A DNA stretch of 15,177 nucleotides from Chthonomonadales bacterium (lineage in GTDB: Bacteria > Armatimonadota > Chthonomonadetes > Chthonomonadales > Chthonomonadaceae), in assembly GCA_038217285.1 (NCBI GenBank), contig JBBQPO010000151.1:1-15177 (forward strand). Reading direction: 5' to 3'. Position numbers and translations under genes: made by a program. Below, piece by piece: positions 227 to 13,628 of this stretch; the stretch's first letter is position 1; each line of letters starts with the position of its first letter. The notes under the pieces are model-generated. The model did no database searches and was not told the origin of the DNA. It saw only the letters and a list, made by a program, of their open reading frames with translations.

Positions 227-1279
227 ATGAACAGAGGAAGTATGCAAACCAACCGAAGACGATTCTATGTTGCGGGCGCGCTCGCGCTCACGACATTTCT
301 GGGCTGCCATCGCGGCGGGGCATCTAACGGTGCCGTCGATGCGGTCGCCCTTACCCCGACGCAGAAAGCGAAACCGACCAGGCCGCCCGTGAGCATCGAG
401 GAGTTACAAAAAGCTAAAGTCAACGAGGCTGGGGTAGTTCCAATCCTGGAGTATCACGATGTCCTGCCGAAAGAACGCAGCATGGTGCGCAGCATCGACA
501 ACTTCAAACACGACCTGCAGCGCCTCTACGACGAAGGTTATCGCCCGGTTCTGCTCCGCAGCGTTCTGGATAATAAGATCGATCTGCCGATGGGCATGGC
601 CCCGGTGGTCTTTACCTTCGACGACGCGCGCAACAGTCAGTTCCGATATCTGCCGAACGGCGACATCGATCCAGCCTGCGTCATTGGGATATGGCAGGCG
701 TTCGCGAAGACGCATCCGGATTTTCCGATCAAAGCGACGTTTTATGTGCTGCCGGACGTCGGGTTTTGCGGGACCGACACCGCCGTAAAGAAGATGAAAG
801 CCCTCCTCACATTGGGCTGCGAAATCGGCAATCATACGGTGTCGCATCGGGCGCTTTCGAAACTCTCGGACGCCGAAGTGCAGAAAGAACTGGGGGACTG
901 TGTCGCAAAGATAGAGAAGCTTGCGCCGGGAACAAAAGTGGACACGGTAGCGCTCCCGATGGGCATCTCACCGAAAAACAGGAAGCTTCTCGCAGCCGGA
1001 ACGGGCAACGGTCAGGCGTATGCGAACCGGGCGGTCCTGCTCGTGGGCGCGAATCCGGCCCCAGCGCCGATCTCGAAGCGGTTCAATCCGATGCGCCTGC
1101 CGCGTATCCAGGCCTGCGAACAGGACAGCGGCAGCACCTTCTGGCTCGACCGGATCAAGCATGGAGAGATGGGCCGCTACGTCAGCGATGGCGACCCGAA
1201 CACGACGACGATCCCCTCTTCCCTGGAGAAGAAGTGCGATAAGTCGCACCTGAACGGCGCGACCCTGCGCGTCTACTGA
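227..1279 (+). CDS. Polysaccharide (possibly peptidoglycan) deacetylase, NodB/CE4 family, probable lipoprotein
   Basis: CE4 motif 1 (TFDD), metal-binding motif 2 (EIGNHTVSH) and an N-terminal PILEYH. The signal peptide has RRRFY, a hydrophobic stretch and lipobox FLGC. Alternative start ATG at 242. The 3' end overlaps the convergent argH by 7 nt. Confidence 0.88.
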   Translation: MNRGSMQTNRRRFYVAGALALTTFLGCHRGGASNGAVDAVALTPTQKAKPTRPPVSIEELQKAKVNEAGVVPILEYHDVLPKERSMVRSIDNFKHDLQRLYDEGYRPVLLRSVLDNKIDLPMGMAPVVFTFDDARNSQFRYLPNGDIDPACVIGIWQAFAKTHPDFPIKATFYVLPDVGFCGTDTAVKKMKALLTLGCEIGNHTVSHRALSKLSDAEVQKELGDCVAKIEKLAPGTKVDTVALPMGISPKNRKLLAAGTGNGQAYANRAVLLVGANPAPAPISKRFNPMRLPRIQACEQDSGSTFWLDRIKHGEMGRYVSDGDPNTTTIPSSLEKKCDKSHLNGATLRVY

Positions 1280-2673
1280 GGCGCACTTTGGTTATCGAAC
1301 CGCTCCCGTGCCTTGTCCAGTTGAACACGGACAGCGCTGGGAGCGGTTCCGCCCTGTGAGGTTCTGGCGGCGACACAGGACTGCACTGTCAGGACGGCCA
1401 GGGCTGCCTTCGTATTCTGCTCCAAGAGGGGCGAGAAAGCGGCCAGGGTCGCCCCGTCCAGATCTTCCAGCCCGATTTTCCGCTCCGTACAGTGCTGAAC
1501 GACCTTGCCGACGATGTGATGCGCTTCGCGAAACGGAAGGCCCTGCCGCACCAGATAGTCGGCAAGATCTGTTGCCGTCGAGAAGTCGCCTTGTGTGGCC
1601 GCGAGCATGCGGTCTGCGCGGAATCGGGCCGTCTCCAGGGTCTTACGCATCGCGGGGATCACGAGGAAGAGCGTGTCGATGGCGTCGAACAGCGGCTCCT
1701 TATCCTCCTGCATATCCTTGTTGTAGGCGAGAGGCAGACCCTTCATCAGGGTCAGCAGGCTCATCAGGTCGCCGTAGACCCGGCCGGTCTTGCCTCGGGC
1801 CAGTTCCGCGACATCCGGGTTCTTCTTCTGCGGCATGATGCTGCTGCCCGTCGTCACCGAGTCGTGCAGCGTGATCCAGCCGAACTCCGGCGCGTTCCAG
1901 AGGATGATCTCTTCCGCCAGTCGGGAGAGGTGCATCATGGTAATGGCGGCAAAGGCCAGGAACTCGATGGCGAAGTCCCGATCCGAGACTGCGTCGAGGC
2001 TGTTGGGAATTACGGAGGCGAAGTCGAGGGCCCTGCCGACCTGCTCACGATCGATGGGAAATCCGGTTCCTGCGAGCGCGCCTGCGCCGAGCGGCAGGCG
2101 GTTGATGCGGCGGCGGGTATCGGCGAGGCGTTCCCGGTCCCGATCCAGCATCCAGAAATAGGCGAGCAGATGATGCGCCAGTACGACCGGCTGTGCGTGC
2201 TGGAGATGCGTGAAACCGGGCAGGACTGTCTCCGTCTCGTTTTCGGCATGATCGAGCAGCGCCTGCTGCAGCGTCGCCAGTTCCAGATCGGTCCGGTCAC
2301 AGACTTCGCGCAGATAGAGGCGAATATCGGTCGCGATCTGATCGTTGCGGCTGCGGGCTGTGTGGAGCCTTCCGGCCACCGGGCCTAAGCGCTCCCGCAA
2401 GAGCCCTTCGACGGCGGTATGCACGTCTTCCGCGTCGGGAGGCAGTTCGACCGTTCCGGCAGCAAGATCCGTTTCCAGCGCCTTCAGCCCGGCAACAAGC
2501 TCGTCCGCCTTGGCCTGGGAGACGATCCCGGTCGTGCCGAGCATGGCGGCATGCGCGATGCTGCCCTGAATATCGTGTCGCCAGAGCCGCGCATCGAAAC
2601 GGAGCGAGTTGTTCAGCCGCTCGATGAGCGCATCCGTCGGCTCGTCAAAATGCCCGCCCCAGAGCTTAAGCAT
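1273..2673 (-). CDS. argH: Argininosuccinate lyase
   Basis: N-terminal KLWGG.F, HTARSRNDQ, GFTHLQHAQP, the fumarate-lyase signature GSSIMPQKKNPD and YNKDMQEDKE. Confidence 0.98.
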   Translation of the reverse strand: MLKLWGGHFDEPTDALIERLNNSLRFDARLWRHDIQGSIAHAAMLGTTGIVSQAKADELVAGLKALETDLAAGTVELPPDAEDVHTAVEGLLRERLGPVAGRLHTARSRNDQIATDIRLYLREVCDRTDLELATLQQALLDHAENETETVLPGFTHLQHAQPVVLAHHLLAYFWMLDRDRERLADTRRRINRLPLGAGALAGTGFPIDREQVGRALDFASVIPNSLDAVSDRDFAIEFLAFAAITMMHLSRLAEEIILWNAPEFGWITLHDSVTTGSSIMPQKKNPDVAELARGKTGRVYGDLMSLLTLMKGLPLAYNKDMQEDKEPLFDAIDTLFLVIPAMRKTLETARFRADRMLAATQGDFSTATDLADYLVRQGLPFREAHHIVGKVVQHCTERKIGLEDLDGATLAAFSPLLEQNTKAALAVLTVQSCVAARTSQGGTAPSAVRVQLDKARERFDNQSAPQ

Positions 2674-3952
2674 CGGTGCCCTGCTTCGTCTCGCCGCCGA
2701 TCAGCATCGGCTCGTCCCGCGCGCCGCCGAGAATTTTGCCCTGCTGTTTGAGCTGCCAGTAGAGTTTGGACTGCATTCCGTGCGTCTTCACCATGCCGAG
2801 CGAGTCGGCCTGGTTGAAGGTTTTGCTGTCGAACGAGGCCAGATCTTCATTGTAGAGCGCCGCTTCACTGCTTCGGCCGATCACCACGGCGCTGCCCTTG
2901 TTGAGCCGCATGATGACGGTGCCGGTGACCCTGTGTTGGACGCGGTTGATGAACGCCTCCAGATCCTCGCGCAGCGGGTCGAGCCACAGACCCTTGTAGG
3001 CCAGTTCACCCCACTCCCGATCTACCAAGGACTTGAACTTGAGCTCTCCTGCTGTGCAGACCAGGGCCTCCAGCGCCCGGTGCGCCGCGATCAGCACCAC
3101 AGCTGCGGGGCACTCATAGTTTTCGCGCACTTTTAGCCCCATCATGCGGTCTTCCATGATGTCGATGCGTCCTACCCCGTGTTCGCCGGCGATCTTGTTC
3201 AGTTCCACCACGAGTTCGAGGCTCGCGAGGCGCTCGCCGTCGAGGGAGACCGGAACGCCGTTCTCAAAGCCGATGTGGAGGGTGCGCGGCGCATCCGGGC
3301 AGTCGGCAATACTGCGCGTCCAGTGGAAGATCTCTTCCGGCGGCGCGTAGTCGGGCTCTTCGAGGCGTCCGCCCTCGATGCTGCGTCCCCAGACGTTCTC
3401 ATCCACGCTCCAGATCTTGTCCTTCGTCTGCGGGATGTCGAGGCCGTGCGCGTTGGCATATTCGATCTCTTCGCTGCGCGTCCAGGTGTCGCGCGTGCCG
3501 TCGGGCAGGCGACGACCTTCGCGCATCGGCGCGATGATCTCGGCGTCCGGCAGGAGCGTCCGCATGATATACTCGATGCGGAACTGATCGTTGCCCTTGC
3601 CGGTGCAGCCGTGCCCGAACGCGTTCACGCCGAGCTCCTTGGCTTTTTCGACCGCCTTCAACGCGATCAGCGGTCGGGCGATGCTGGTTGAGATCGGATA
3701 GCCTTGATAGTCGCCATTGGCGCGCACGGCAGGCCAGCAGAAATGCTCGACGAACATCTCCTTTGCGTCCACCGTGTAGTGCTCGGTCCCGAGCCGCACG
3801 GCGCGCTCCTCGGCGAGCTTGATGTCGTCAGCAGGCTGCCCGACATCGACAGTCACCGTGATTACGTGGTCAAATCCGTACTCCTCCCGCATCAGCGGTA
3901 TGCAGACGGAGGTATCCAGTCCGCCGGAGTACACCAGAACGATCTTCTTCAT
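2666..3952 (-). CDS. argG: Argininosuccinate synthase
   Basis: YSGGLDTS PP-loop, HGCTGKGNDQ.R and K.RE.YE.P motifs. Overlaps the argH start by 8 nt. Confidence 0.98.
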   Translation of the reverse strand: MKKIVLVYSGGLDTSVCIPLMREEYGFDHVITVTVDVGQPADDIKLAEERAVRLGTEHYTVDAKEMFVEHFCWPAVRANGDYQGYPISTSIARPLIALKAVEKAKELGVNAFGHGCTGKGNDQFRIEYIMRTLLPDAEIIAPMREGRRLPDGTRDTWTRSEEIEYANAHGLDIPQTKDKIWSVDENVWGRSIEGGRLEEPDYAPPEEIFHWTRSIADCPDAPRTLHIGFENGVPVSLDGERLASLELVVELNKIAGEHGVGRIDIMEDRMMGLKVRENYECPAAVVLIAAHRALEALVCTAGELKFKSLVDREWGELAYKGLWLDPLREDLEAFINRVQHRVTGTVIMRLNKGSAVVIGRSSEAALYNEDLASFDSKTFNQADSLGMVKTHGMQSKLYWQLKQQGKILGGARDEPMLIGGETKQGTDA

Positions 3953-3988
3953 CTTATCGAATGTCCTTAAATTTTATTGTTGACCGCG

Positions 3989-5473
3989 TCAGAGCCCGAC
4001 CATCAGGGCGACGAGCGCTTTCTGCGTATGGAGCCTATTTTCCGCCTGATTCAGGATCACCTCTTTGTGGGCCTCCATCACCTCCGTGGTGATCTCTTCC
4101 TCACGATGGGCCGGCAGACAGTGCAGAACGATCGCGTCCGGTTTGGCGTGCGCCATCAGCGCGGCGTTGACCTGATAGGGCGCGAAGATCGCCAACCGCT
4201 GCGCCTTCTCCTCTTCCTGTCCCATGCTGGTCCAGACGTCGGTATAGACGACATCGGCGTCCTTCACAGCCACAACGGGGTCTGTCACGACCGCGATTAT
4301 GGCTCCTGTCCCATTCTCCCCTGCCCCGATTCGCTGCGCCTCGGCCACGTACTCCGCCGCAGGTTCGTAACCGGTCGGGCAGGCGGCAGTTAAGTTTACC
4401 CCGACTTTGGCGCAGGCAAGCAGCAGCGCATGCAGCACATTGTTCCCATCCCCGACGTAGGCCAATTTGAGGTGATTGCCAAGCTTGCCTTTGGATTCAA
4501 TGATCGTGAGCAGATCGGCAAACGCCTGGAGAGGATGCTCCCGGTCGCTCAACGCGTTGATCACAGGAACCGTTGCGGCTGCCGCCAACTCCTCCACCGT
4601 TTCGTGCTTGAAGGTCCGCGCCGCGATGGCATCGACCCATCGCGACAGTCCCCCTGCCACGTCCGACACTGACTCCCGTACTCCTAATCCGACATCGCCA
4701 GGAGCAAGATAAATCGCATGGCCTGCCAGATGCGCCATACCCGCCTCGAAACTCACACGCGTTCGCAGCGAAGGCTTTTCGAACAGCAGGGCCAGCGTTT
4801 TCGGATGCGCAAAGTAGACGAACTTATCGTTTCGCTTTAGCGCCTTAAACCGGGCGGCAACTCCCAGCACTGCCATCACCTGTTCCGACGAGACGTCGAA
4901 CAGCGAAACGAGCGAGCGACCGCGCCATTTATCCATATCATCCTGGATCATGGATTTCAAGACCAATTCGCCTGCTGCATGCGATGCAGCCTCAGCACCG
5001 GCGGGTTGCCGCACACCCTCGCGTATCGAACTTCCGGCATCGCCGTCCTGCAGCGCCATAACCTCACGCCGAGTCCTCTCCAGCTCCACGCCGAGTTTCG
5101 CCAGCACACGTCCTGCCAGACCCTCGCCCTCGCGGATCAGGCCGAGCAGAATGTGCTCCGTTCCGATATAGTTGTTGCTCAGTTGTCGCGCTTCGTCGTA
5201 AGCCAGATCGATGATGCGCTTGGCGCGAGGCGTGAGCTGCATATCCTGGCCTATGCGTCCGTCTCCACGTGCCACTTGACGCTCGATCTCTGTGCGAATG
5301 CGGCCTAGAGAGATGCCCATTCCATCCAAAATACGAGCGGCCACGCTATCGTTCTCGCGTACCAGTCCGAGGAGCAGATGTTCGGTGGAGACATAGTTCT
5401 CCCCAAGCCTTCCGGCCTCTTCCTGGGCGAAGAATACGACGCGCCGTGCTCTCTCTGTAAATCGTTGCCACAT
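3989..5473 (-). CDS. argF: Fusion protein: ClpC-type N-terminal domain (two Clp_N repeats, aa ~1-143), linker, ornithine carbamoyltransferase (aa ~183-494)
   Basis: Single uninterrupted ORF with SD GGAGG upstream. The N-terminus has RFTERAR, STEHLLLGL, LTPRAK and GTEHILLGLIREGEG (Clp_N x2). The C-terminus has FEKPSLRTRVSFE, HPLQAFAD, DVWTSMGQE, HCLP and QAENRLH (OTC). Confidence 0.95.
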   Translation of the reverse strand: MWQRFTERARRVVFFAQEEAGRLGENYVSTEHLLLGLVRENDSVAARILDGMGISLGRIRTEIERQVARGDGRIGQDMQLTPRAKRIIDLAYDEARQLSNNYIGTEHILLGLIREGEGLAGRVLAKLGVELERTRREVMALQDGDAGSSIREGVRQPAGAEAASHAAGELVLKSMIQDDMDKWRGRSLVSLFDVSSEQVMAVLGVAARFKALKRNDKFVYFAHPKTLALLFEKPSLRTRVSFEAGMAHLAGHAIYLAPGDVGLGVRESVSDVAGGLSRWVDAIAARTFKHETVEELAAAATVPVINALSDREHPLQAFADLLTIIESKGKLGNHLKLAYVGDGNNVLHALLLACAKVGVNLTAACPTGYEPAAEYVAEAQRIGAGENGTGAIIAVVTDPVVAVKDADVVYTDVWTSMGQEEEKAQRLAIFAPYQVNAALMAHAKPDAIVLHCLPAHREEEITTEVMEAHKEVILNQAENRLHTQKALVALMVGL

Positions 5474-5561
5474 GGTTCCTGTCCTCCGTCCTGTCGTCAG
5501 CGTCGCGGCCCACCGTGCTTCAGAACACGACTAAGTAGTCGGTCATAGTTCCTTCGTACTT

Positions 5562-5674
5562 TTCCCGGCAATGAATTGCCGTTCTGAGAGGGTAAACCCG
5601 CCTTCGCGGGTTGGTTGCATTCAGTCCGCGAAGGCGGACTTGCCGTTTCAGCGCGGGGTTTCAACCCCGTGAAC
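5562..5674. repeat. 113-bp REP-doublet (REPIN-like) palindromic element, copy 1
   Basis: Four hairpins: CGGCAAT/ATTGCCG, AACCCGC/GCGGGTT, AGTCCGC/GCGGACT and CGGGGTT/AACCCCG. By hand alignment it is 98/113 identical, without gaps, to the reverse complement of 13516-13628. Confidence 0.9.
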
Positions 5675-5693
5675 GCAATCTACGAACAAACTA

Positions 5694-6938
5694 TCAGCCA
5701 CTATTAAGCGCCTGTTCAATAGTTGTCACGACTCGATCGCAGTCGGCATTGGTGACGACGAGCGGTGGGACGAAACGCAGGACGCTGTCGCTGGTCGCAT
5801 TGGCGACGATGCCGGCTTCCATCAGATATTTATGAACCGCCTTCGCGTCCGGTGTGCTGAGCTGTAAGCCGACCATTAGCCCACGTCCTCGCACCTCTTT
5901 GATCCGATCCGGCAACGCGTTCTGCAACTCCTGCAGGCGCGCCTTGAAGTAGCCGCCGACTTCGGCGGCGCGCTCCATCAAATGCTCCTCCTCCATCACG
6001 TCCAGCGTGGCGAGCGCGGCGGCGCAGGCGAGCGGTTGTCCGGCGAAGGTCGATCCGTGGTCGCCGGGAACGAGTGTGTTCGCAGCCGAACCCCTGGCGA
6101 GGCAGGCGCCCATCGGAAAGCCGTCGGCGATCCCTTTCGCCAGGGTGACGATGTCGCCCTGCACTCCGACGCACTGACTGGCGAGAAAATGGCCGGTACG
6201 GCCCATGCCGCACTGAATCTCGTCGAGGATCAACAGAACTTCAGCCTCATCACATAGGGCGCGCACGCCTGCCAGAAACTCGGGAGTCGCGGGATTGATG
6301 CCGCTTTCGCCCTGCAACGGCTCGATCATGACCGCGCAGGTCTTCTCCGTTATCAGTTCGTCCAGCGCCGCCAGGTCGTTGAGGGGCGCGTAGTGAAAGC
6401 CGGGAACCAGCGGCGCGAACGGGGCCTGATACTTCGGCTGCGCGGTCGCCGAGACCGCTCCCATCGTTCGGCCATGAAACGAGCCTGTAAACGTGATGAT
6501 CTCGAAGCAGTCCACGCCGCGCTTCTGCTTGCCCCACTTCCGCGCGATCTTCAGCGCGGCCTCGTTCGCCTCCGCACCGGAGTTGCAGAAGAACACCTTG
6601 TCCATATCCGCCAGTTTGCACAGTCGTTCCGCCAGTTTGGCTGCCAGCGGATTATGAAAGAGATTGCTGATGTGCATGAGCCGGTGCGCCTGTTCCGCGA
6701 TGGCTCCCGCCACCCTGGGATGGCAGTGCCCAACCCCGACCACGGCGATGCCCGATAGGAAATCGAGATACTCACGCCCCTCACTGTCCCACAGACGCGC
6801 TCCTTCCCCGCGCACGAACACGACAGGCTGACGGGCGTACGTTCCCATGATATAGTCACGGTCCAGCGCCATGATCGTTTCGGCGGCATTGGGCAGGGCC
6901 AGGAGGGCATCCTCTTCTTCCAGGAGGTAGGTACTCAT
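5694..6938 (-). CDS. argD: Acetylornithine aminotransferase (class III PLP-dependent)
   Basis: FFCNSGAEANEAALK, SFHGRT, EPLQGESG, LILDEIQCGMGRTG and the PLP lysine in TLAKG, plus arg operon context. Confidence 0.95.
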   Translation of the reverse strand: MSTYLLEEEDALLALPNAAETIMALDRDYIMGTYARQPVVFVRGEGARLWDSEGREYLDFLSGIAVVGVGHCHPRVAGAIAEQAHRLMHISNLFHNPLAAKLAERLCKLADMDKVFFCNSGAEANEAALKIARKWGKQKRGVDCFEIITFTGSFHGRTMGAVSATAQPKYQAPFAPLVPGFHYAPLNDLAALDELITEKTCAVMIEPLQGESGINPATPEFLAGVRALCDEAEVLLILDEIQCGMGRTGHFLASQCVGVQGDIVTLAKGIADGFPMGACLARGSAANTLVPGDHGSTFAGQPLACAAALATLDVMEEEHLMERAAEVGGYFKARLQELQNALPDRIKEVRGRGLMVGLQLSTPDAKAVHKYLMEAGIVANATSDSVLRFVPPLVVTNADCDRVVTTIEQALNSG

Positions 6939-6959
6939 ATTCGTTTCCTCTTCGTTCCA

Positions 6960-6992
6960 GTAGAGGTCGGCGCAGACAGAGACGCGCCGACC
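6960..6992. other. Intergenic hairpin (9-bp stem) preceded by GTAG; REP-like or RNA-stability element
   Basis: GGTCGGCGC (6965-6973) pairs with GCGCCGACC (6984-6992) around a 10-nt loop. GTAG is at 6960-6963. There is no U-tract on the sense strand. Confidence 0.45.
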
Positions 6993-7004
6993 AGGGTCTT
7001 ACGC

Positions 7005-9002
7005 TCAGTGATCGATGTAGTTTTTCGACACGCCAAGCTCCTCGGGCGCGTGCAGGCGCAGCATCTTCATCGCGATGTCGTGCGGCACATGGGCGGCGGT
7101 AGCCAGCGAGACGACGACCATCACGGTGATCGAAACGGGAACGCCCCAGATCGCGGGCTGCTCCATCAGAGTGCGAATCTGCGGACTGACCTCCCACAAA
7201 AGCCACTTCTTGTCGAGCGCCATCGAACAGACGATCGCCGTCAGCGACAGCAAGCCCCCTGTCAGCATTCCGGCAGCAGCGCCGTGGCGGGTCAAACCAC
7301 GCCACCAAGCGCCGAGCAGAAGCAACGGGAAGTAGGACGCCGCTGCGATGGCGAAAGCCCACCCGACCATCATGGCGATGTCGAAGGACTGTACCAGCAG
7401 TCCGAGCAGCATCGAAATGACGCCACACACGATGGCGGCGATCTTGAAGGCCTTCAGGCGGTCGCCCTGGGACGCATTGGGCCGCAGCATCTTGCCATAG
7501 ATATCGTGGGCCAGCGCGCCCGACATGCTGACCAACAGACCGGAGAACGTCGACATAAAGGCCGCGAACGCCCCGGCGCTCGTGATTCCGCTCAAGATCT
7601 GCCCGAGCAGCTTATTGCCGGTCAGCGCCATCGGCAGCTTGATCACGATGCTGTCGGTCGCATTGTTGGCGTAGAGGATCGGAAGAATGTTCCGTCCAAT
7701 GGCACCCCAGATAGGCGGGAAAAAGTAGAAGATTCCGATCAGAACCATAACCCATAGCGTCGTCCGCTTGGCGGATCTTCCATCCGGGTTTGTGTAGAAT
7801 CTCACCAGAATATGAGGCAGCCCCGCCGTACCACAGACCAGCGCCAGGATCAACGAATAGGTATAGAGCAGCGGATGCCCATACTTACCGGTCATGGTCC
7901 CGAACGGCTCGCTCCACTTCTTATTCGACTGCGCGTTCGGGATAGCGGAACCCGCAGCCATTAGTCCGCTCGTCTTCGTCAGAAACTCGATTTTCGGAGA
8001 GTTGCGAAGGTTCGCGCCGTCTTTCATGAGTGGATTTCCGGACTGCGTGGCCTTATAGGGATGAGACTCCAACACCGATCCGGCGGCAATGGTAATCCCG
8101 TGCGGCCATCCGCCCGCCGGACTGGTGGCGACAATCTGATCTCCCTGCAGGACGACCAGCGCACCGGCATGAAGCGGATCTTCGCCCGGTTCGAGTTTGC
8201 GCGCCGCCGAGACCTTATCGAGTTTCGCGCCGTCGGGAAAGGTGATTCGCGTGACGGGGCCCGACGCGAAGGCGACGGCGTTGGCCGGGGCACCGTCCTT
8301 GCCTTTGAAAGCGACCTTCGTCTCGTTCTCCAGTTTGGGCGTAGCCTTCGGGTTATCGACGTTCGCGGCGACGTTTGCAGGGTAGCCGCCATAGACCGAC
8401 ATCAATACGAAGACCGGAACGGAGATCGCGAACACTTTGGCCCAGTACTGAAACGCCTGGACGAAGGTAATGCCTTTCATTCCGCCAAGCGCCACATTGA
8501 ACGTGATGACCGCACCGACGACGACGATTCCAACCGCATAGGGCCAGTTCAGAATCAAGGCCATCGTCAGGCCCGCGCCCTTCATCTGCGGCATCGTATA
8601 GAAAAAACCGATGAAGAGCACGAAGATGACGGCGATCTTGCGGAACGTCGGGCTGTCAAAACGTCCCTCTGCGAAGTCAGGAACGGTGTAGGCGCCAAAA
8701 CGACGCAACGGCCCCGCGATGAAGAGCAGGAGAAGCAGATAACCGGTGGCGTAGCCGACAGGGTACCAGAGCGCGTCATAGCCGTTCTTCATCAACAGCC
8801 CTGCGATACCCATAAAGGAGGCTGCGGAGAGATACTCCCCCGAGATCGCGGAGGCGTTCCAGAAAACGCTGACCGACCGGCCAGCGACGAAGAAGTCGGA
8901 GGCCGATTTCGACATCTTCGTGGCATGGATGCCCAGCCAGACCGTCGCCGCGATGATGAGGATAACAAACGTAAGCGGTATCCACGCGATCCCCTCGGTC
9001 AT
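7005..9002 (-). CDS. Sodium:solute symporter, ActP/cation-acetate-symporter-like, with a large hydrophilic insertion
   Basis: Motifs DFFVAGR, NASAISGEYLSAASFMG, GGMKGITFVQ and GTAGLPHILVRFYT, and many TM segments. Start reassigned to the ATG at 9002 (MTEGIAW), which overlaps the DUF485 stop as ATGA; about 665 aa. Confidence 0.9.
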   Translation of the reverse strand: MTEGIAWIPLTFVILIIAATVWLGIHATKMSKSASDFFVAGRSVSVFWNASAISGEYLSAASFMGIAGLLMKNGYDALWYPVGYATGYLLLLLFIAGPLRRFGAYTVPDFAEGRFDSPTFRKIAVIFVLFIGFFYTMPQMKGAGLTMALILNWPYAVGIVVVGAVITFNVALGGMKGITFVQAFQYWAKVFAISVPVFVLMSVYGGYPANVAANVDNPKATPKLENETKVAFKGKDGAPANAVAFASGPVTRITFPDGAKLDKVSAARKLEPGEDPLHAGALVVLQGDQIVATSPAGGWPHGITIAAGSVLESHPYKATQSGNPLMKDGANLRNSPKIEFLTKTSGLMAAGSAIPNAQSNKKWSEPFGTMTGKYGHPLLYTYSLILALVCGTAGLPHILVRFYTNPDGRSAKRTTLWVMVLIGIFYFFPPIWGAIGRNILPILYANNATDSIVIKLPMALTGNKLLGQILSGITSAGAFAAFMSTFSGLLVSMSGALAHDIYGKMLRPNASQGDRLKAFKIAAIVCGVISMLLGLLVQSFDIAMMVGWAFAIAAASYFPLLLLGAWWRGLTRHGAAAGMLTGGLLSLTAIVCSMALDKKWLLWEVSPQIRTLMEQPAIWGVPVSITVMVVVSLATAAHVPHDIAMKMLRLHAPEELGVSKNYIDH

Positions 9003-9391
9003 TCCATCCCCTCTTCCTGCGGTGCGGTCGTCGTCGCCCCTACAGTGGTAGAAACCGCTGCAGGCAACATCGTACGCCCGATAGCCGTACACTCCGCTTC
9101 GATAGCGTCCGATTTCTGGACGAAGTAGGAGGAGAGAAGCCAGGTCAGGGGAAAGAAGCAGATCCCCAGAATGAGCCAGGTCAGGCTGAACCCGAAGAGA
9201 CGACTGTTCATCAGCGCAGGCTGGCTCTGGTTGAGCCAGGGAAGCGCCAGAAGCGGCAGCAGGAAGAGCGCTGCCACCTGCAGGCTCAATGCGGCTTGCC
9301 GCCGCATGACGACATGCAGGAGCTTCTCCTGTGTTTCTAAGGGTATCAGGCCGGGCGACGTTGTCGCGATGTCAGGAACCGTGTTGCTCAT
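8999..9391 (-). CDS. DUF485 (YjcH-like) small membrane protein, usual partner of ActP-like symporters
   Basis: Two TM helices in 130 aa, SD GAAGGAG upstream, and translational coupling to the symporter in the known DUF485-actP arrangement. Confidence 0.8.
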   Translation of the reverse strand: MSNTVPDIATTSPGLIPLETQEKLLHVVMRRQAALSLQVAALFLLPLLALPWLNQSQPALMNSRLFGFSLTWLILGICFFPLTWLLSSYFVQKSDAIEAECTAIGRTMLPAAVSTTVGATTTAPQEEGME

Positions 9392-9460
9392 CGGTGCGCA
9401 TTCTCCTTCGAAGGCTGAAACTGCCAGACACGAAACGTCGTGTCCGCGAATCGAGTCGGA

Positions 9461-10339
9461 TCAGGCATGAATCATCGTGCCAATACCGGTGTCGGTGAAA
9501 ATCTCGATCAGCAGCGAATGGGGTTGCCGCCCATCTATCAAGTGGGCACGACTGACGCCTCCCTCGATCGCTGCAATGCACGCCTCCAGTTTGGGGATCA
9601 TCCCACGCTCCGCTGCCCCGCTGGCGATCATCGCGCTCGCCCTGTCCGTATCCATACGCTGAATGAGGGAAGACTTGTCGGCATAGTCGGCATAGAGACC
9701 TTCTACATCGGTCAGCAGCACCAGTTTCGCCGCGCCCACCGCCGCCGCGATATGCCCGGCCACATGATCCGCATTGACGTTATAGCTCGCTCCATCCGGA
9801 CCGATCGCCACAGAGGAGACGACCGGGACATACCCATTGCCGCTCAGCAAGTTCAGGATTTCAGGATTAACCTGAGCGACCTCGCCTACAAACCCCAGAT
9901 CGCCGAGCGCTGACTCCATGCGATACGCCTGGATCAGGTTGGCATCCTTACCGCTCAATCCGACCGCTTTCGCGCCCTGTCGATTCAGGAGCGACACGAT
10001 GCCCTTGTTCGTCTTGCCGGTGAGGACCATCTCGACGATCTCCATCGTTGCGGCATCGGTCACGCGTAGGCCGCCGACAAAGGTCGGCTCCTGCCCCATC
10101 TGCTTCATCATCGCGCTGATCTCAGGGCCACCGCCATGTACAAGTATAGGTCGAATACCTACGTAGTGAAGCAGGGCAATGTCCTGCATCACCTGCATCT
10201 TCAGCGCCTCATCGATCATGGCGTTGCCGCCATATTTCACGACGATAGTCTTGCCGTAAAACTGCTTCAGGTAGGGCAGCGCTTCGATCAGGACCGCAGC
10301 ATGCTGACGAGGTTCAAGTTTATTGGTCATAGTTGGCAT
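9461..10339 (-). CDS. argB: Acetylglutamate kinase, arginine-sensitive (hexameric) type
   Basis: VVKYGGNAM, VHGGGPEI, GLRVTD, NVNAD and GMIPK. The N-terminal helix (L.EALPY) and C-terminal EIFTDTGIGT are the signature of Arg-inhibited NAGKs. Alternative start at 10330. Confidence 0.97.
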   Translation of the reverse strand: MPTMTNKLEPRQHAAVLIEALPYLKQFYGKTIVVKYGGNAMIDEALKMQVMQDIALLHYVGIRPILVHGGGPEISAMMKQMGQEPTFVGGLRVTDAATMEIVEMVLTGKTNKGIVSLLNRQGAKAVGLSGKDANLIQAYRMESALGDLGFVGEVAQVNPEILNLLSGNGYVPVVSSVAIGPDGASYNVNADHVAGHIAAAVGAAKLVLLTDVEGLYADYADKSSLIQRMDTDRASAMIASGAAERGMIPKLEACIAAIEGGVSRAHLIDGRQPHSLLIEIFTDTGIGTMIHA

Positions 10340-11563
10340 TTACGTGTGGTATTCGGCGTTGATTTTGATGTAGTCGTAACTGTAGTCGCACGTCCAGATC
10401 GTCGCGACTTCGTCTCCCATATTCAGATCCATCACGATCTGCACCTCTTTGCCAGTCAAGTAGTCGTGCGCGCCGTCGCGGTCGAACTCCACGCTGCGGC
10501 CTGCCGAGCAGACGATGTGCTCGCCGATTCGGACCTCGACTCCGCTTGGGTCGAAAGGAACCCCGGCGCGGCCTGCGGCCATGAGAAGGCGGCCCCAGTT
10601 CGGATCGTTACCGAACAGCGCCGTTTTGACGAGCGGTGATTCCGCGATGGTCTTCGCAATTCGGTGCGCTCCTGCCTCCGTCGCCGCGCCCCGTACCACG
10701 ACTTCGACAAGCTTCGTCGCGCCCTCCCCATCCCGCGCGATCTCCTTCGCCAGGCCGACACAGAGCCGAGTCAGCGCATCGACGAAATCCTCGAAGGCCG
10801 GGCCAGGTCGCGAGATCTCTCCCGCTCCCATCCCGGATGCCAGCAGCAGACACATATCGTTCGTACTCGTATCCCCATCGATGGTAACACTGTTGAACGA
10901 AACTGCCACCGCTCTGTTTAATGCTTCCTGGAGCAAGGCGGCCGGTAAGCGCGCATCCGTCGTGACGAACGCGAGCATTGTCGCCATGTTGGGCGCGATC
11001 ATTCCGGAGCCTTTGCACATACCGCCAAACCGAATCGGCGCCACCCACACATCCGAATCGGCCTCGAAGGCGCTGTGCTTAGGGTAGGTATCCGTGGTCA
11101 TGATGGCCCGGGCCAGCGTTTGATCGGTGTCGCCCTCCCGGTCCAGTCCGGCGACTGCCGCCTCGATGCCTGCCTGCAGTTTGTCCATCGGCAGCAGGTG
11201 CCCGATAATCCCGGTGGAGGCGGTGAGGACGGCGTCGGGCGGCAGATTGAGGCGACGACTGACCCACTCCGCCAGCGTCCGGTTGTCCTGATCGCCTTGC
11301 TCTCCGTTGCAGGCGTTCGCATTGCCCGCGTTGATGAGGACCGCGCGGGCCGTGCCGTTCTTGACGACGCGCCGCGAGTACTGTACGCAGGCGGCCTGGA
11401 CCCGGTTGGTCGTGAAAACGCCAGCGACCGCGCAGGCGCTCTCACTGACCAACAGGGCCAGATCCTCGCCCTCAGTCTTCAGGCCGCACCGTACTCCGGA
11501 GGCGACAAACCCTTCCGGAAACGTGATTCCCGCTGCCTCCGCCTGTTGCCATCGTATTAACAA
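10340..11563 (-). CDS. argJ: Ornithine acetyltransferase / N-acetylglutamate synthase ArgJ
   Basis: NAGNANA, STGIIG, IMTTDT, the autoproteolysis site KGSGMIAPNMA|TML, DGDTSTND, DGEGATK and DPNWGR. TTG start with SD GAGGAG 7 nt upstream. Confidence 0.97.
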   Translation of the reverse strand: MLIRWQQAEAAGITFPEGFVASGVRCGLKTEGEDLALLVSESACAVAGVFTTNRVQAACVQYSRRVVKNGTARAVLINAGNANACNGEQGDQDNRTLAEWVSRRLNLPPDAVLTASTGIIGHLLPMDKLQAGIEAAVAGLDREGDTDQTLARAIMTTDTYPKHSAFEADSDVWVAPIRFGGMCKGSGMIAPNMATMLAFVTTDARLPAALLQEALNRAVAVSFNSVTIDGDTSTNDMCLLLASGMGAGEISRPGPAFEDFVDALTRLCVGLAKEIARDGEGATKLVEVVVRGAATEAGAHRIAKTIAESPLVKTALFGNDPNWGRLLMAAGRAGVPFDPSGVEVRIGEHIVCSAGRSVEFDRDGAHDYLTGKEVQIVMDLNMGDEVATIWTCDYSYDYIKINAEYHT

Positions 11564-11574
11564 GACGTTTCTCC

Positions 11575-12114
11575 TCAGCTCGTCTGCTCTTTGTGGGGTT
11601 GAGCGGGGCGTACCGCCGCTCTATACGCGCTGGAACTCTTAATGCGTTCGAGTTGGCGTGTATGATGCCCATAGTGCGAAATTATGGTTGCGAGCCACTC
11701 TTTACCGTTCAGCCTGCCATATTGGAAATGCCAACTGACCTGCTTGGGATTGATGGGTCTGCCCGTCGATTCCGCCAGCCGAAGCAGCGAACCCGCGTGA
11801 TCTTTGCGCACGTCGTCAAAGGATCTCTTCCCGGCTCCGCGATAGAGCGAGCCCGCTTCGTACTGCAGCGAGCGTCCCCGTGTGAAAGCCTCCAGAATAT
11901 TGGCGACTCCATAGTTGACATCGGCCACATGCGCGACCATATCGCGTATACTCTTCGGACAGGAGCCGCGCATCCGAGCGCCCTCTTCGCTGACATCCTC
12001 GAGAAGATTATCAAAGACCCACCCCGCCACGAGACCCTCCTCCAGAAGGGCGTCCCAGTCCTTGGCCCGCACGAGAGGATCGATCAAAATTCGTTTCCGT
12101 ATCAGCTTTAGCAT
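11575..12114 (-). CDS. DinB/YfiT-superfamily protein (putative His-triad metalloprotein)
   Basis: SIRDMVAHVAD and ISHYGHHTRQL match the DinB four-helix-bundle His pattern. SD TAAGGA upstream. Tightly packed between argC (25-nt gap) and argJ (11-nt gap). Confidence 0.75.
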   Translation of the reverse strand: MLKLIRKRILIDPLVRAKDWDALLEEGLVAGWVFDNLLEDVSEEGARMRGSCPKSIRDMVAHVADVNYGVANILEAFTRGRSLQYEAGSLYRGAGKRSFDDVRKDHAGSLLRLAESTGRPINPKQVSWHFQYGRLNGKEWLATIISHYGHHTRQLERIKSSSAYRAAVRPAQPHKEQTS

Positions 12115-12139: not shown

Positions 12140-13180
12140 TCAGGGCCAAACCCCTCCCATAGCCAGTCCGTCTGTCTCGTTGAAACCGCACATCAGATTC
12201 ATATTCTGAATCGCCTGTCCTGCCATCCCTTTGACCAGGTTGTCGATCGCCGAGACGACTGTAACGCGGTTCAGGCGCGCGTCTACCGCCAGTCCGAGGT
12301 GGCACATATTCGAGCCCAGCGTCTGTTTCGTCGCGGGCAGGTCGTCGCGAACCGCCACAAACGGGGCATCGGCGTAGAACGCACTATACATCTTCAACAG
12401 TTCTTCCCGCGTTCCCTTCTCTTTAAGCATCGCATAACAGGTCGCGAGGATGCCGCGCGTCATCGGGATCAGGTGTGGGGTAAAGGTGAGAGCGACTTCA
12501 GCGCCTGCCACGAGGGACAAAGACTGCTCGATTTCAGGCGTATGACGATGGGTTCCGGCGATTTTGTAGGCGCTGACGCTTTCGTTTGCCTCCGGAAAGT
12601 GGTAGTCCTGGCTCCATTTCGACCGCCCCGCGCCGGAAACGCCCGACTTGGCATCGATCAGCACAGACGCAGGATCGACGAGTCCATTCACGAAAAGCGG
12701 CAGGAGAGCGATCAGCGAGGCGGTCGGGAAGCAGCCTGGATTGCCCACCAGGCGCGCTACCCGGATCGCTTCGCGATTTCGTTCCGGCAGCCCATACACG
12801 GCCTGTGCATTCCAGTCCGGGGCCGTGTGCGCCTGCTTGTACCATGTCTCATAGAGCGCTACATCCCGCAGTCGAAAGTCAGCGGAAAGATCCACCACCT
12901 TACACCCGGCCTCCAGGAGTTGTGGGGCGATATGCATCGCCTTTCCGTTGTCCTGCGCGAGAAACACGACATCGCACTGGGCTACCTCCGTGCCGTCGCC
13001 GTAACTTGAGAACACGATATCAGACCGTTTCGCCATCCCCGCGAACGCCGCCGACACCGGCTGGCCCGCATACGTTTCCGAAACCGCCGCGCGTACTCGC
13101 GCTCCAGGATGTGCCGCCAGCAGCCTCAACAGCTCGCCGCCACCATAACCGGAAGCTCCTACAATCGCTACGTCTATCAT
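12140..13180 (-). CDS. argC: N-acetyl-gamma-glutamyl-phosphate reductase
   Basis: GASGYGG, DLSADFRL, catalytic NPGCFPT, SGVSGAG, HRHTPEI and DNLVKGMAGQAIQNMN. SD GAGGAG upstream. Confidence 0.98.
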   Translation of the reverse strand: MIDVAIVGASGYGGGELLRLLAAHPGARVRAAVSETYAGQPVSAAFAGMAKRSDIVFSSYGDGTEVAQCDVVFLAQDNGKAMHIAPQLLEAGCKVVDLSADFRLRDVALYETWYKQAHTAPDWNAQAVYGLPERNREAIRVARLVGNPGCFPTASLIALLPLFVNGLVDPASVLIDAKSGVSGAGRSKWSQDYHFPEANESVSAYKIAGTHRHTPEIEQSLSLVAGAEVALTFTPHLIPMTRGILATCYAMLKEKGTREELLKMYSAFYADAPFVAVRDDLPATKQTLGSNMCHLGLAVDARLNRVTVVSAIDNLVKGMAGQAIQNMNLMCGFNETDGLAMGGVWP

Positions 13181-13211
13181 AACTCGCTCACTCCTCTTGC
13201 GCTACACAGAT

Positions 13212-13248
13212 AAAAATGAATTTGCCGCTCGGTCATGGGACCGGCGGC
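13212..13248 (-). terminator. Second terminator-like hairpin in the arg leader
   Basis: The sense strand reads GCCGC-CGGTC-CCAT-GACCG-A-GCGGC followed by AAATTCATTTTT. The U-tract is displaced from the stem, so strength is uncertain. Confidence 0.5.
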
Positions 13249-13259
13249 GGGCAGTTTCT

Positions 13260-13308
13260 AAAAAATGAACGCCGTCGGCCTCCCGGTTGGGGCTGCCCAC
13301 GGCTTTCA
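13260..13308 (-). terminator. Attenuator (conditional intrinsic terminator) of the arg operon leader
   Basis: The sense strand reads TGAA-A-GCCGT-G-GGC-AGC-CCC-AACC-GGG-AG-GCC-G-ACGGC-G-TTCA-TTTTTT. Its 5' arm contains CGTGGGC, complementary to GCCCACG at the leader stop codon. Confidence 0.75.
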
Positions 13309-13347
13309 GTCGGTTGGTATGTCACAGGACAACGACGCGGCGTGGGC
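13295..13347 (-). promoter_or_regulatory. Antiterminator stem of the arg leader
   Basis: GCCCACG (13347-13341) pairs perfectly with CGTGGGC (13301-13295), with nested GTCG/CGAC and TGTC/GACA helices. It is mutually exclusive with the terminator. Confidence 0.7.
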
Positions 13348-13409
13348 TATTTGCCTGTACGCTCGCGGCGACGGTTGATAAAACTGCTGCAGACGTTGTC
13401 GATGAACAT
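13347..13409 (-). CDS. Arginine-rich leader peptide MFIDNVCSSFINRRRERTGK (putative arg operon attenuator peptide)
   Basis: ATG at 13409, TAG at 13349-13347. The Arg codons CGT CGC CGC (GAG) CGT are clustered at codons 13-17. SD-like GAAGGA lies 11 nt upstream. It sits between the promoter and the terminator. Confidence 0.8.
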   Translation of the reverse strand: MFIDNVCSSFINRRRERTGK

Positions 13410-13445
13410 GGAAAATCTATTCCTTCATAAGTTGAAGACAGTAAG

Positions 13446-13475
13446 AGTATACCGGGCGGAACGCCATCATGTCAA
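13446..13475 (-). promoter_or_regulatory. sigma70-type promoter of the arg operon
   Basis: -35 TTGACA (13475-13470), 18-nt spacer, -10 TATACT (13451-13446), and an A-rich UP-like tract (CACAAACAAAAATCAAA) upstream. Predicted TSS near 13439. Confidence 0.85.
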
Positions 13476-13515: not shown

Positions 13516-13628
13516 GTTCACGGGGCTCAAGCCCCGCGCTGAAACGGGAAGTCCGCCGTCGCGGACTCAAAGCCGCGAGTCCGCGAAGGCGGACTTCCCC
13601 TCTCAGAACGGCAATTCATTGCCGGGAA
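13516..13628. repeat. 113-bp REP-doublet (REPIN-like) palindromic element, copy 2 (inverted relative to copy 1)
   Basis: Same four-hairpin architecture as 5562-5674, with compensatory substitutions in hairpins 2 and 4. Confidence 0.9.

Follow-up and report, generated by a model that had tools for sequence, protein, structure and literature searches.

A predicted arginine-codon leader-peptide attenuator in front of argC in the Chthonomonadaceae

In the textbook view, arginine synthesis in bacteria is governed by a repressor (ArgR) and not by attenuation. RNA-level responses connected with arginine have nevertheless been described, and according to the accessible parts of the respective papers, arginine genes are under T-box control in some species (PMC1262725), while in orf34 of the Salmonella speF leader low-arginine pausing at two Arg codons changes the fate of the mRNA (Ben-Zvi et al. 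2019, PMC6386406). Judged from that partial text, orf34 before speF is the nearest published case that we found. The available portion of the survey by Seliverstov et al. (2005, PMC1262725) lists no RNA element for the regions upstream of actinobacterial arginine operons, and arginine goes unmentioned in the accessible main text of Naville and Gautheret (2010, PMC2965389). Likewise, the accessible text of Brewer et al. (2021, PMC8632094) lists Cys-codon and other upstream open reading frame (uORF) motifs and none for arginine synthesis, and that of de Groot et al. (2014, PMC4007540) reports 14 predicted leader peptides in Deinococcus deserti. A full-text literature search returned no Arg-codon leader-peptide attenuator of an arg biosynthetic operon, although most subscription journals lay outside this search and an older prediction may exist. 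Here, we analyzed a stretch of 15,177 nucleotides (nt) of a Chthonomonadales bacterium of the phylum Armatimonadota (contig JBBQPO010000151.1, referred to as the window), in which a structured leader precedes argC. This leader is most probably a classical ribosome-mediated transcription attenuator that senses charged tRNA-Arg and gates argC together with the genes behind it. On the comparative sequence evidence given below, the element is conserved and real, and its predicted arginine specificity would be new for classical attenuation.

All coordinates refer to the window, and all leader elements lie on its minus strand. The leader begins with a sigma-70-type promoter (13446..13475), which consists of the -35 box TTGACA (13475-13470), an 18-nt spacer and the -10 box TATACT (13451-13446). 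With 11 of 12 consensus positions, it is the top promoter-like site of the window in a consensus scan; the same scan gave seven other sites at 9/12 and none above, and shuffled sequences contain 4 sites on average. TTGACA and TATA(C/A)T are kept at an unchanged distance in relatives, and transcription would start near 13442-13439. A Shine-Dalgarno (SD) sequence GAAGGA (13421..13426) stands 11 nt ahead of the ATG (13409) of the uORF (13347..13409), and an AAGGA-like motif with similar spacing occurs in most relatives. The uORF comprises 20 codons and a TAG stop codon (13349-13347), with MFIDNVCSSFINRRRERTGK as its product. Its Arg residues are found only at codons 13, 14, 15 and 17, that is, four within five codons, as the initial annotation of this DNA had pointed out. 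These putative regulatory codons, CGT CGC CGC GAG CGT (R13 R14 R15 E16 R17), occupy 13359..13373, and the part from 13367 to 13359 is at the same time the 5' arm of a hairpin termed P1.

Downstream of these codons, the heptamer GCCCACG (13347-13341) starts with the G of the uORF stop codon and is complementary to CGTGGGC (13301-13295) inside the 5' arm of a terminator hairpin, T1. The region 13336..13347 thus contains two overlapping strands, GCCCACG as the 5' strand of the antiterminator and ACGCCGCG (13343-13336) as the 3' arm of P1. T1 (13271..13303; -23.5 kcal/mol) has the 5' arm GCCGTGGGC (13303-13295) and the 3' arm GCCGACGGC (13279-13271) and is followed by the U-rich tail GTTCATTTTTT (13260..13270), at which a terminated leader RNA would be expected to end; the T1 tail is U-rich among the aligned relatives as well. 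A further terminator, T2 (13211..13248; -19.0 kcal/mol), consists of a hairpin at 13248-13224 (GCCGCCGGTC ... GACCGAGCGGC) and the tail AAATTCATTTTTA, which extends to 13211. Both T1 and T2 are GC-rich hairpins with U-rich tails located between the uORF and argC (12140..13180, ATG at 13180, SD sequence AGAGGAG at 13197-13191). A simple terminator scan of the window missed both of them, owing to their long loops and bulges. The fold of the 270-nt leader has an energy of -91.5 kcal/mol (z = -3.2), and 0 of 200 dinucleotide shuffles folded as well. The promoter, GAAGGA, the 20-codon uORF, the GCCCACG/CGTGGGC pair, the U-tailed hairpin and argC had all been recognized in the initial annotation and were found again in place. 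That annotation proposed a single terminator; T1 is indeed present and conserved, but a second conserved terminator follows in tandem, and T2 as well as P1, the 1:2 hairpin of Arg codons with post-stop sequence, are features that go beyond it.

The proposed mechanism can be described with six segments, whereby a colon denotes pairing. Segment 1 comprises the Arg/Glu/Arg codons within the P1 5' arm, segment 2 starts from the stop codon, T1 has segments 3 and 4 as its arms, and T2 has segments 5 and 6. When arginine is plentiful, the ribosome would reach the TAG and cover segment 2, whereupon 3:4 (T1) would form and transcription would stop near 13260. If the ribosome had already gone, 1:2 would form, with the same termination outcome. 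When arginine is scarce, the ribosome would wait on CGU CGC CGC and hold segment 1, which would leave segment 2 free to pair with segment 3 once the latter is made; T1 would then be blocked and the polymerase would continue. What we infer in this scheme is that the uORF is translated, that the ribosome stalls at the Arg codons, that T1 and T2 end transcription and that T2 can be passed.

The conservation of the leader was examined in a family set of 42 genomes whose record titles read Chthonomonadaceae, Armatimonadota. A BLAST search with the leader DNA gave matches in 8 of 40 related genomes, all belonging to the same family, and in other genera about 40 nt were retained, with the part from the Arg codons through GCCCACG being best kept. 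In all nine loci (9/9), the uORF ends with N/S-RRR(R)-E-R-x-G-x-stop, and each stands before a gene with an ArgC N-terminus. A degenerate 33-nt core pattern matched 11 stretches among 185,579 species genomes (one genome per species), and each of the 11 records bears the title Chthonomonadaceae or Chthonomonadales bacterium. A covariance model, R1, was then built from 11 leaders and applied to the family with a threshold of E up to 0.01. It matched 28 of the 42 genomes, and the full leader is present in 27 of them, covering 16 of 23 genera, with one true leader per genome. The full leader lies directly before argC in 24 of these 27 genomes; two of the other loci are cut by a contig edge, and one is separated from argC. 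The recurrence of this layout in 27 of 42 genomes, 24 of them with the leader directly in front of argC, is more than chance would give.

Several variant loci were also observed. At the separated locus (L038 in genome G020), about 780 nt with another ORF of about 200 codons stand between leader and argC, and this intervening DNA may be an insertion between attenuator and operon. T1 is present and T2 absent in G056 and G010. L042 (G013, 1501-1628) possesses the Arg uORF and P1 with a single, T2-like terminator, while L048 (G024, 1501-1597), which was not counted as a full leader, lacks a uORF but retains, immediately in front of argC, a promoter and a T2-like hairpin; both look like reduced versions of the leader. 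The second R1 matches in G008 and G013 were judged false. L049, L050 and L055 were rejected as hairpins alone, with neither an Arg uORF nor argC downstream, and L052 was rejected as a terminator pair on a contig different from that of argC.

In the alignment of 30 leaders, an Arg run is present in every sequence and an in-frame start in 29, the remaining one being cut by a contig end, so that the conservation of the Arg cluster anticipated in the initial annotation is confirmed. The richest five-codon window contains 3 or 4 Arg codons in 30/30 leaders, and the run of 3-5 Arg codons occupies a fixed place inside segment 1, 4-5 codons before the stop, in all of them. The Arg run is the only constant part of the peptide, as illustrated by NRRRERTGK, SRRRRESFGI, SSRRRQRTGI, SRRRARARA and NRRREYIPR, and the N-terminal part of the uORF is unconserved across the alignment. 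Synonymous Arg codons (CGA, CGG, AGA and AGG) are used beside CGT/CGC in the uORFs of relatives. Behind the run, GAG is replaced by CAG, GCG or GAA, and CGU by AGU, AGA, GAA, UAU or CAU, and the partner bases after the stop codon change too. Since the codon changes in the tail come with compensating post-stop changes, the constancy of the E-R-x-G tail in closer relatives is, at the level of sequence, best explained by RNA pairing.

The leader Arg codons of the window are all CGU or CGC. The tRNA-Arg anticodons detected in the genome by ARAGORN are TCG (two), GCG, CCG, CCT and TCT; no tRNA-Arg with an ACG anticodon was seen in this 95%-complete genome, in which an ACG gene may be unassembled. 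Given this anticodon set, a run of CGU and CGC only would report on a single tRNA-Arg(GCG). The reading of both CGU and CGC by a GCG tRNA is unusual for bacteria.

The secondary structure was derived with RNAalifold from nine leaders, which revealed the three hairpins P1, T1 and T2. In P1 (-17.2 kcal/mol), the second and third codons of the run, the Glu codon and the fourth Arg codon are paired with bases behind the stop codon, and the inner GG:CC pair draws on the Gly codon; in the window, 13367-13359 pairs with ACGCCGCG. Covariation was measured on the 30-sequence model alignment, which had been fitted to the terminator-state structure, so the counts lean towards that state. For the terminator state, the share of paired cells is 93.8% (of 828), and two-sided changes are seen in 12 of 29 pairs, including 4 of the 10 pairs of the main P1 helix (helix 1). 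None of 500 shuffles reached any of the five measures, and slid controls were 27-49% paired. At the wobble base of the last run codon and its partner, CG is found 17 times, UA 7 times and UG 4 times.

The antiterminator pairing 2:3 was outside the covariance model. Here, 95.9% of 194 cells are paired and 4 of 7 pairs (9 cells) are changed on both sides. The paired percentage, the cell count and the covariation score were reached by 0 of 500 shuffles, the number of changed pairs was reached by 9 of 500, and slid controls ranged from 21 to 58%. At column 117 in the 5' arm of T1, U changes to C together with a change from A to G in the antiterminator partner, and the terminator partner stays pairable throughout. 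Covarying stems, which the initial annotation had named as a check on its reading, are hence seen in both alternative states.

The effect of ribosome position was then modelled on nascent RNA, that is, on transcripts ending at 13292 or 13283, under the assumption that about 14 nt of mRNA are held 3' of the P site. Without a ribosome, P1 (1:2) forms and segment 3 is free. With the RNA masked from its 5' end to 13359, as by a ribosome sitting on the Arg codons, 2:3 forms with -18.3 and -20.1 kcal/mol, respectively, and with the ribosome at the stop codon (masked to 13338), 2:3 cannot form. In these masked folds the geometry is as expected of an attenuator: segment 2 is left free by a ribosome at the Arg codons and covered by one at the stop codon. 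The attenuator interpretation of the initial annotation is therefore supported, in that its checkable sequence-level predictions hold, with the switch seen only in nascent-RNA folds.

A number of observations weigh against this interpretation. The masking test proposed in the initial annotation did not switch the equilibrium fold: T1 (-23.5 kcal/mol) outcompetes the antiterminator (about -16 kcal/mol) and stays in the minimum-free-energy structure even with the Arg codons masked. Because T1 wins every equilibrium fold, the switch would have to be kinetic and co-transcriptional. The trp attenuator is likewise understood as a kinetic switch. The spacing of 11 nt between the SD sequence and the ATG of the uORF is rather long. 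Furthermore, 15 of the 42 family genomes have no full leader; in four of these, no Arg-run uORF was found within 500 nt before argC, and a complete leaderless family genome of 3.4 Mb has a plain promoter and no Arg uORF before argC. T2 would block read-through unless it is bypassed too, and such a bypass is hypothetical. Finally, the 450 nt upstream of hisG, of two leuA-type genes and of trpE showed no His-, Leu- or Trp-rich uORF, although the operon starts may lie elsewhere. The upstream regions of these genes thus do not lend support to the use of leader-peptide attenuation elsewhere in the lineage, and arginine may be the only pathway of this genome under such control. A genome-wide script for other leader peptides (His, Trp or Leu runs with SD sequence and terminator) was discarded as too crude, since it missed the arg leader itself and placed its Trp matches inside coding regions.

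Three other explanations of the element were considered. The terminators form in every equilibrium fold, and short ORFs rich in Arg arise by chance in high-GC genomes, as was seen in the upstream scans, so the uORF could sense translation in general, or the hairpins could be constitutive damping terminators, with the Arg run being non-specific. We regard this as very unlikely, because 3-5 Arg codons stand at a fixed place in all 30 divergent leaders and the element was found nowhere but in front of the arginine operon, with a single true match per genome. Another explanation starts from the core nucleotides CGTCGYCGCGAGCGT, which are invariant in the 11 closest leaders and could reflect a sequence-specific binder, a further point against attenuation. 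A protein or another trans factor would then recognize the CGUCGYCGCGAGCGU / GCCCACG core and set the choice between 1:2 and 2:3, with only an incidental role for the reading frame; in its favour, the genome gave no match to a known arginine regulator, which leaves room for one not yet described. However, distant leaders change these nucleotides and yet keep the Arg run, the in-frame start and the stop codon beside segment 2, changes in E-R-x-G are compensated in segment 2 such that pairing alone explains the constancy, and no candidate binding protein is encoded in the window. Such a factor is therefore very unlikely.

The compensated changes also bear on the proposal that the nascent tail RRRER-x-G-x works from within the ribosome tunnel as an arginine-responsive arrest peptide, comparable to TnaC or the fungal arginine attenuator peptide, by which free arginine would be sensed instead of tRNA charging. 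While the C-terminal E-R-x-G is well kept in the closest relatives, the motif varies elsewhere (Q/A/C for E; S/E/Y/H for R) along with the opposite RNA strand, and the N-terminal part is wholly unconserved. In addition, a stall at the stop codon in high arginine would cover segment 2 just as normal termination does, so the regulatory logic gains nothing. We consider this explanation highly improbable and retain ribosome-mediated attenuation at the Arg codons as the preferred interpretation.

As for the second terminator, 28 of the 30 leaders in the alignment possess T2, with a nearly invariant core, and in its helix (helix 4) 5 of 9 pairs are changed on both sides and 3 never vary. Base complementarity extends over 8 of 9 positions between the T1 3' arm and the T2 5' arm (duplex -16.7 kcal/mol), and each of the 27 leaders possessing T1 as well as T2 can form a 4:5 hairpin (mean energy -12.7 kcal/mol, mean z -2.0). 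One possible route for bypassing T2 would thus be the pairing of the freed segment 4 with segment 5 (13279-13270 with 13249-13240), in which case one ribosome stall on the Arg codons would open both successive terminators. Segments 4 and 5 are nearly invariant, as expected of strands with two partners each; the 4:5 core pairs never vary, so covariation is silent on such a relay. T1 and T2 are also alike, and any U-tail would find a natural complement in the A-rich stretch that precedes T2, which speaks against a relay, and the 4:5 complementarity may be a by-product. We therefore put forward only tentatively, and as a doubtful possibility, that the leader works as a two-stage relay with a block switch between 1:2+3:4+5:6 and 2:3+4:5, and forms the Armatimonadota branch of an undescribed multi-phylum, ArgR-independent arginine control.

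Beyond the family, R1 was run over 151 genomes of the phylum and gave three further true leaders, all before argC. One belongs to another family of the same order, with a uORF of the form ...AERRRRERRESPAHDGQR, and two belong to family f29, with the uORFs ...SPRRRARALGSASATRSA and ...LLRRRVRALGSAPATRLA. The upstream regions of argC were then read in 40 of 144 argC-bearing genomes, taken in E-value order after 8 genomes with model hits had been removed; the sample was uncontrolled with regard to Arg-rich ORFs that arise by chance in high-GC DNA. It contained five more f29 genomes having a uORF with LRRR-x-R, giving a total of 7/7 sampled f29 genomes. Taken together, related Arg-run uORFs, as predicted from the sequences, are present before argC in two other families of the phylum. 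Arg-uORF candidates in families f14 and f3 came from uncontrolled sampling and are leads only. The f29 leaders (L053 in G168, L054 in G152, L064, L065 and L068) are of a different type: their uORF begins a few bases past the -10 box, which makes them nearly leaderless, has LRRR-x-R in mid-peptide with a conserved ALGSAPA-type tail, and lies about 400 nt before argC in three genomes.

Other known arginine regulators were searched for as well. The ArgR domains PF02863 and PF01316 have 0 matches in the 95.3%-complete genome, to which control genomes respond, and the E. coli ARG-box consensus has 0 matches in the window at up to 3 mismatches; both agree with the lack of argR and ARG boxes noted in the initial annotation. 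Within the family, 1 of 42 genomes carries PF02863; the assembly concerned is 70% complete, and the domain lies on a small contig. A cmscan of the window against Rfam 15 at E up to 10 gave no match on the leader, neither a T-box nor a known leader family. The nearby Rfam matches are chance-level microRNA, small-RNA and CRISPR-repeat hits on or across a palindrome upstream of the promoter.

This palindrome (13539-13606) is a near-perfect inverted repeat of 68 nt with a fold energy of -65.5 kcal/mol, situated between the arg promoter and the hydantoinase_B/oxoprolinase gene upstream of the leader. As a member of a dispersed repeat family found on at least 12 contigs of the genome, it resembles REP (repetitive extragenic palindromic) elements. 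A partial copy is located at 5623-5651, within the 220 nt that separate argD from the OTCase gene.

Behind argC, a co-directional row of genes (1273..12114, minus strand) was assigned by Pfam as DinB_2, argJ, argB, SSF transporter, argD, a fusion of Clp_N with OTCase (ornithine carbamoyltransferase), argG and argH. The arginine genes downstream of the leader are argC, argJ, argB, argD, argF, argG and argH. Since there is no other good promoter in the window, control of the whole nine-gene arg row from the leader promoter is plausible; gaps of 368 and 220 nt in the row, and the location of carAB elsewhere, set limits to this. The 368-nt gap (9093-9460) contains no called ORF and precedes the transporter gene. 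This gene, which encodes a sodium:solute symporter of 695 amino acids (7005-9092, minus strand), and the DinB_2-family gene (11575-12114, minus strand) are embedded in the arg row. The OTCase (3989-5473, minus strand) has 494 amino acids and carries an N-terminal Clp_N region (two repeats, E = 3e-34) ahead of two OTCase domains. The Clp_N domain of ClpC binds phospho-arginine, and by analogy the Clp_N part of this OTCase could be an arginine-related regulatory or targeting domain.

A conserved Arg leader in a phylum that seems to lack ArgR would show how such bacteria could regulate arginine synthesis, and it would extend classical attenuation to an additional amino acid. As a compact part responsive to arginine or tRNA-Arg, the leader could also serve in reporter work, and its tandem-terminator layout may reveal how a single ribosome stall is passed along an RNA.

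In comparison with known systems, the leader shares most with enterobacterial trpL, hisL, leuL, thrL, pheL and ilvL, which have the same promoter, a uORF with codons for the end product, the mutually exclusive 1:2, 2:3 and 3:4 pairings, the terminator and a stop codon that places the ribosome on segment 2. Unlike the attenuators of the trpL/hisL type, it would respond to arginine, occurs in Armatimonadota and has a second conserved terminator, and its regulatory codons themselves form the 5' arm of 1:2; there is no sequence or Rfam relationship between them. ArgR/AhrC with ARG boxes serves the same pathway with the same off-when-plentiful logic, but is a DNA-binding protein that acts at transcription initiation. 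Arg T-boxes are likewise RNA-level attenuators that read the charging of tRNA-Arg, whereas they bind the uncharged tRNA itself and need no translation. The fungal arginine attenuator peptide (arg-2 / CPA1) is also encoded by an arginine-responsive uORF before an arginine-pathway gene; in this eukaryotic system, however, a conserved peptide stalls the ribosome in high arginine and blocks scanning, with neither a terminator nor a sensor made of an Arg-codon run. As far as the accessible text of the orf34 study goes (PMC6386406), that leader also has a uORF with consecutive Arg codons at which low-arginine pausing selects an alternative mRNA structure, but it precedes a polyamine gene and acts through Rho-dependent termination, masking of the ribosome-binding site and RNase G decay, and not through an intrinsic terminator as predicted for the argC leader.

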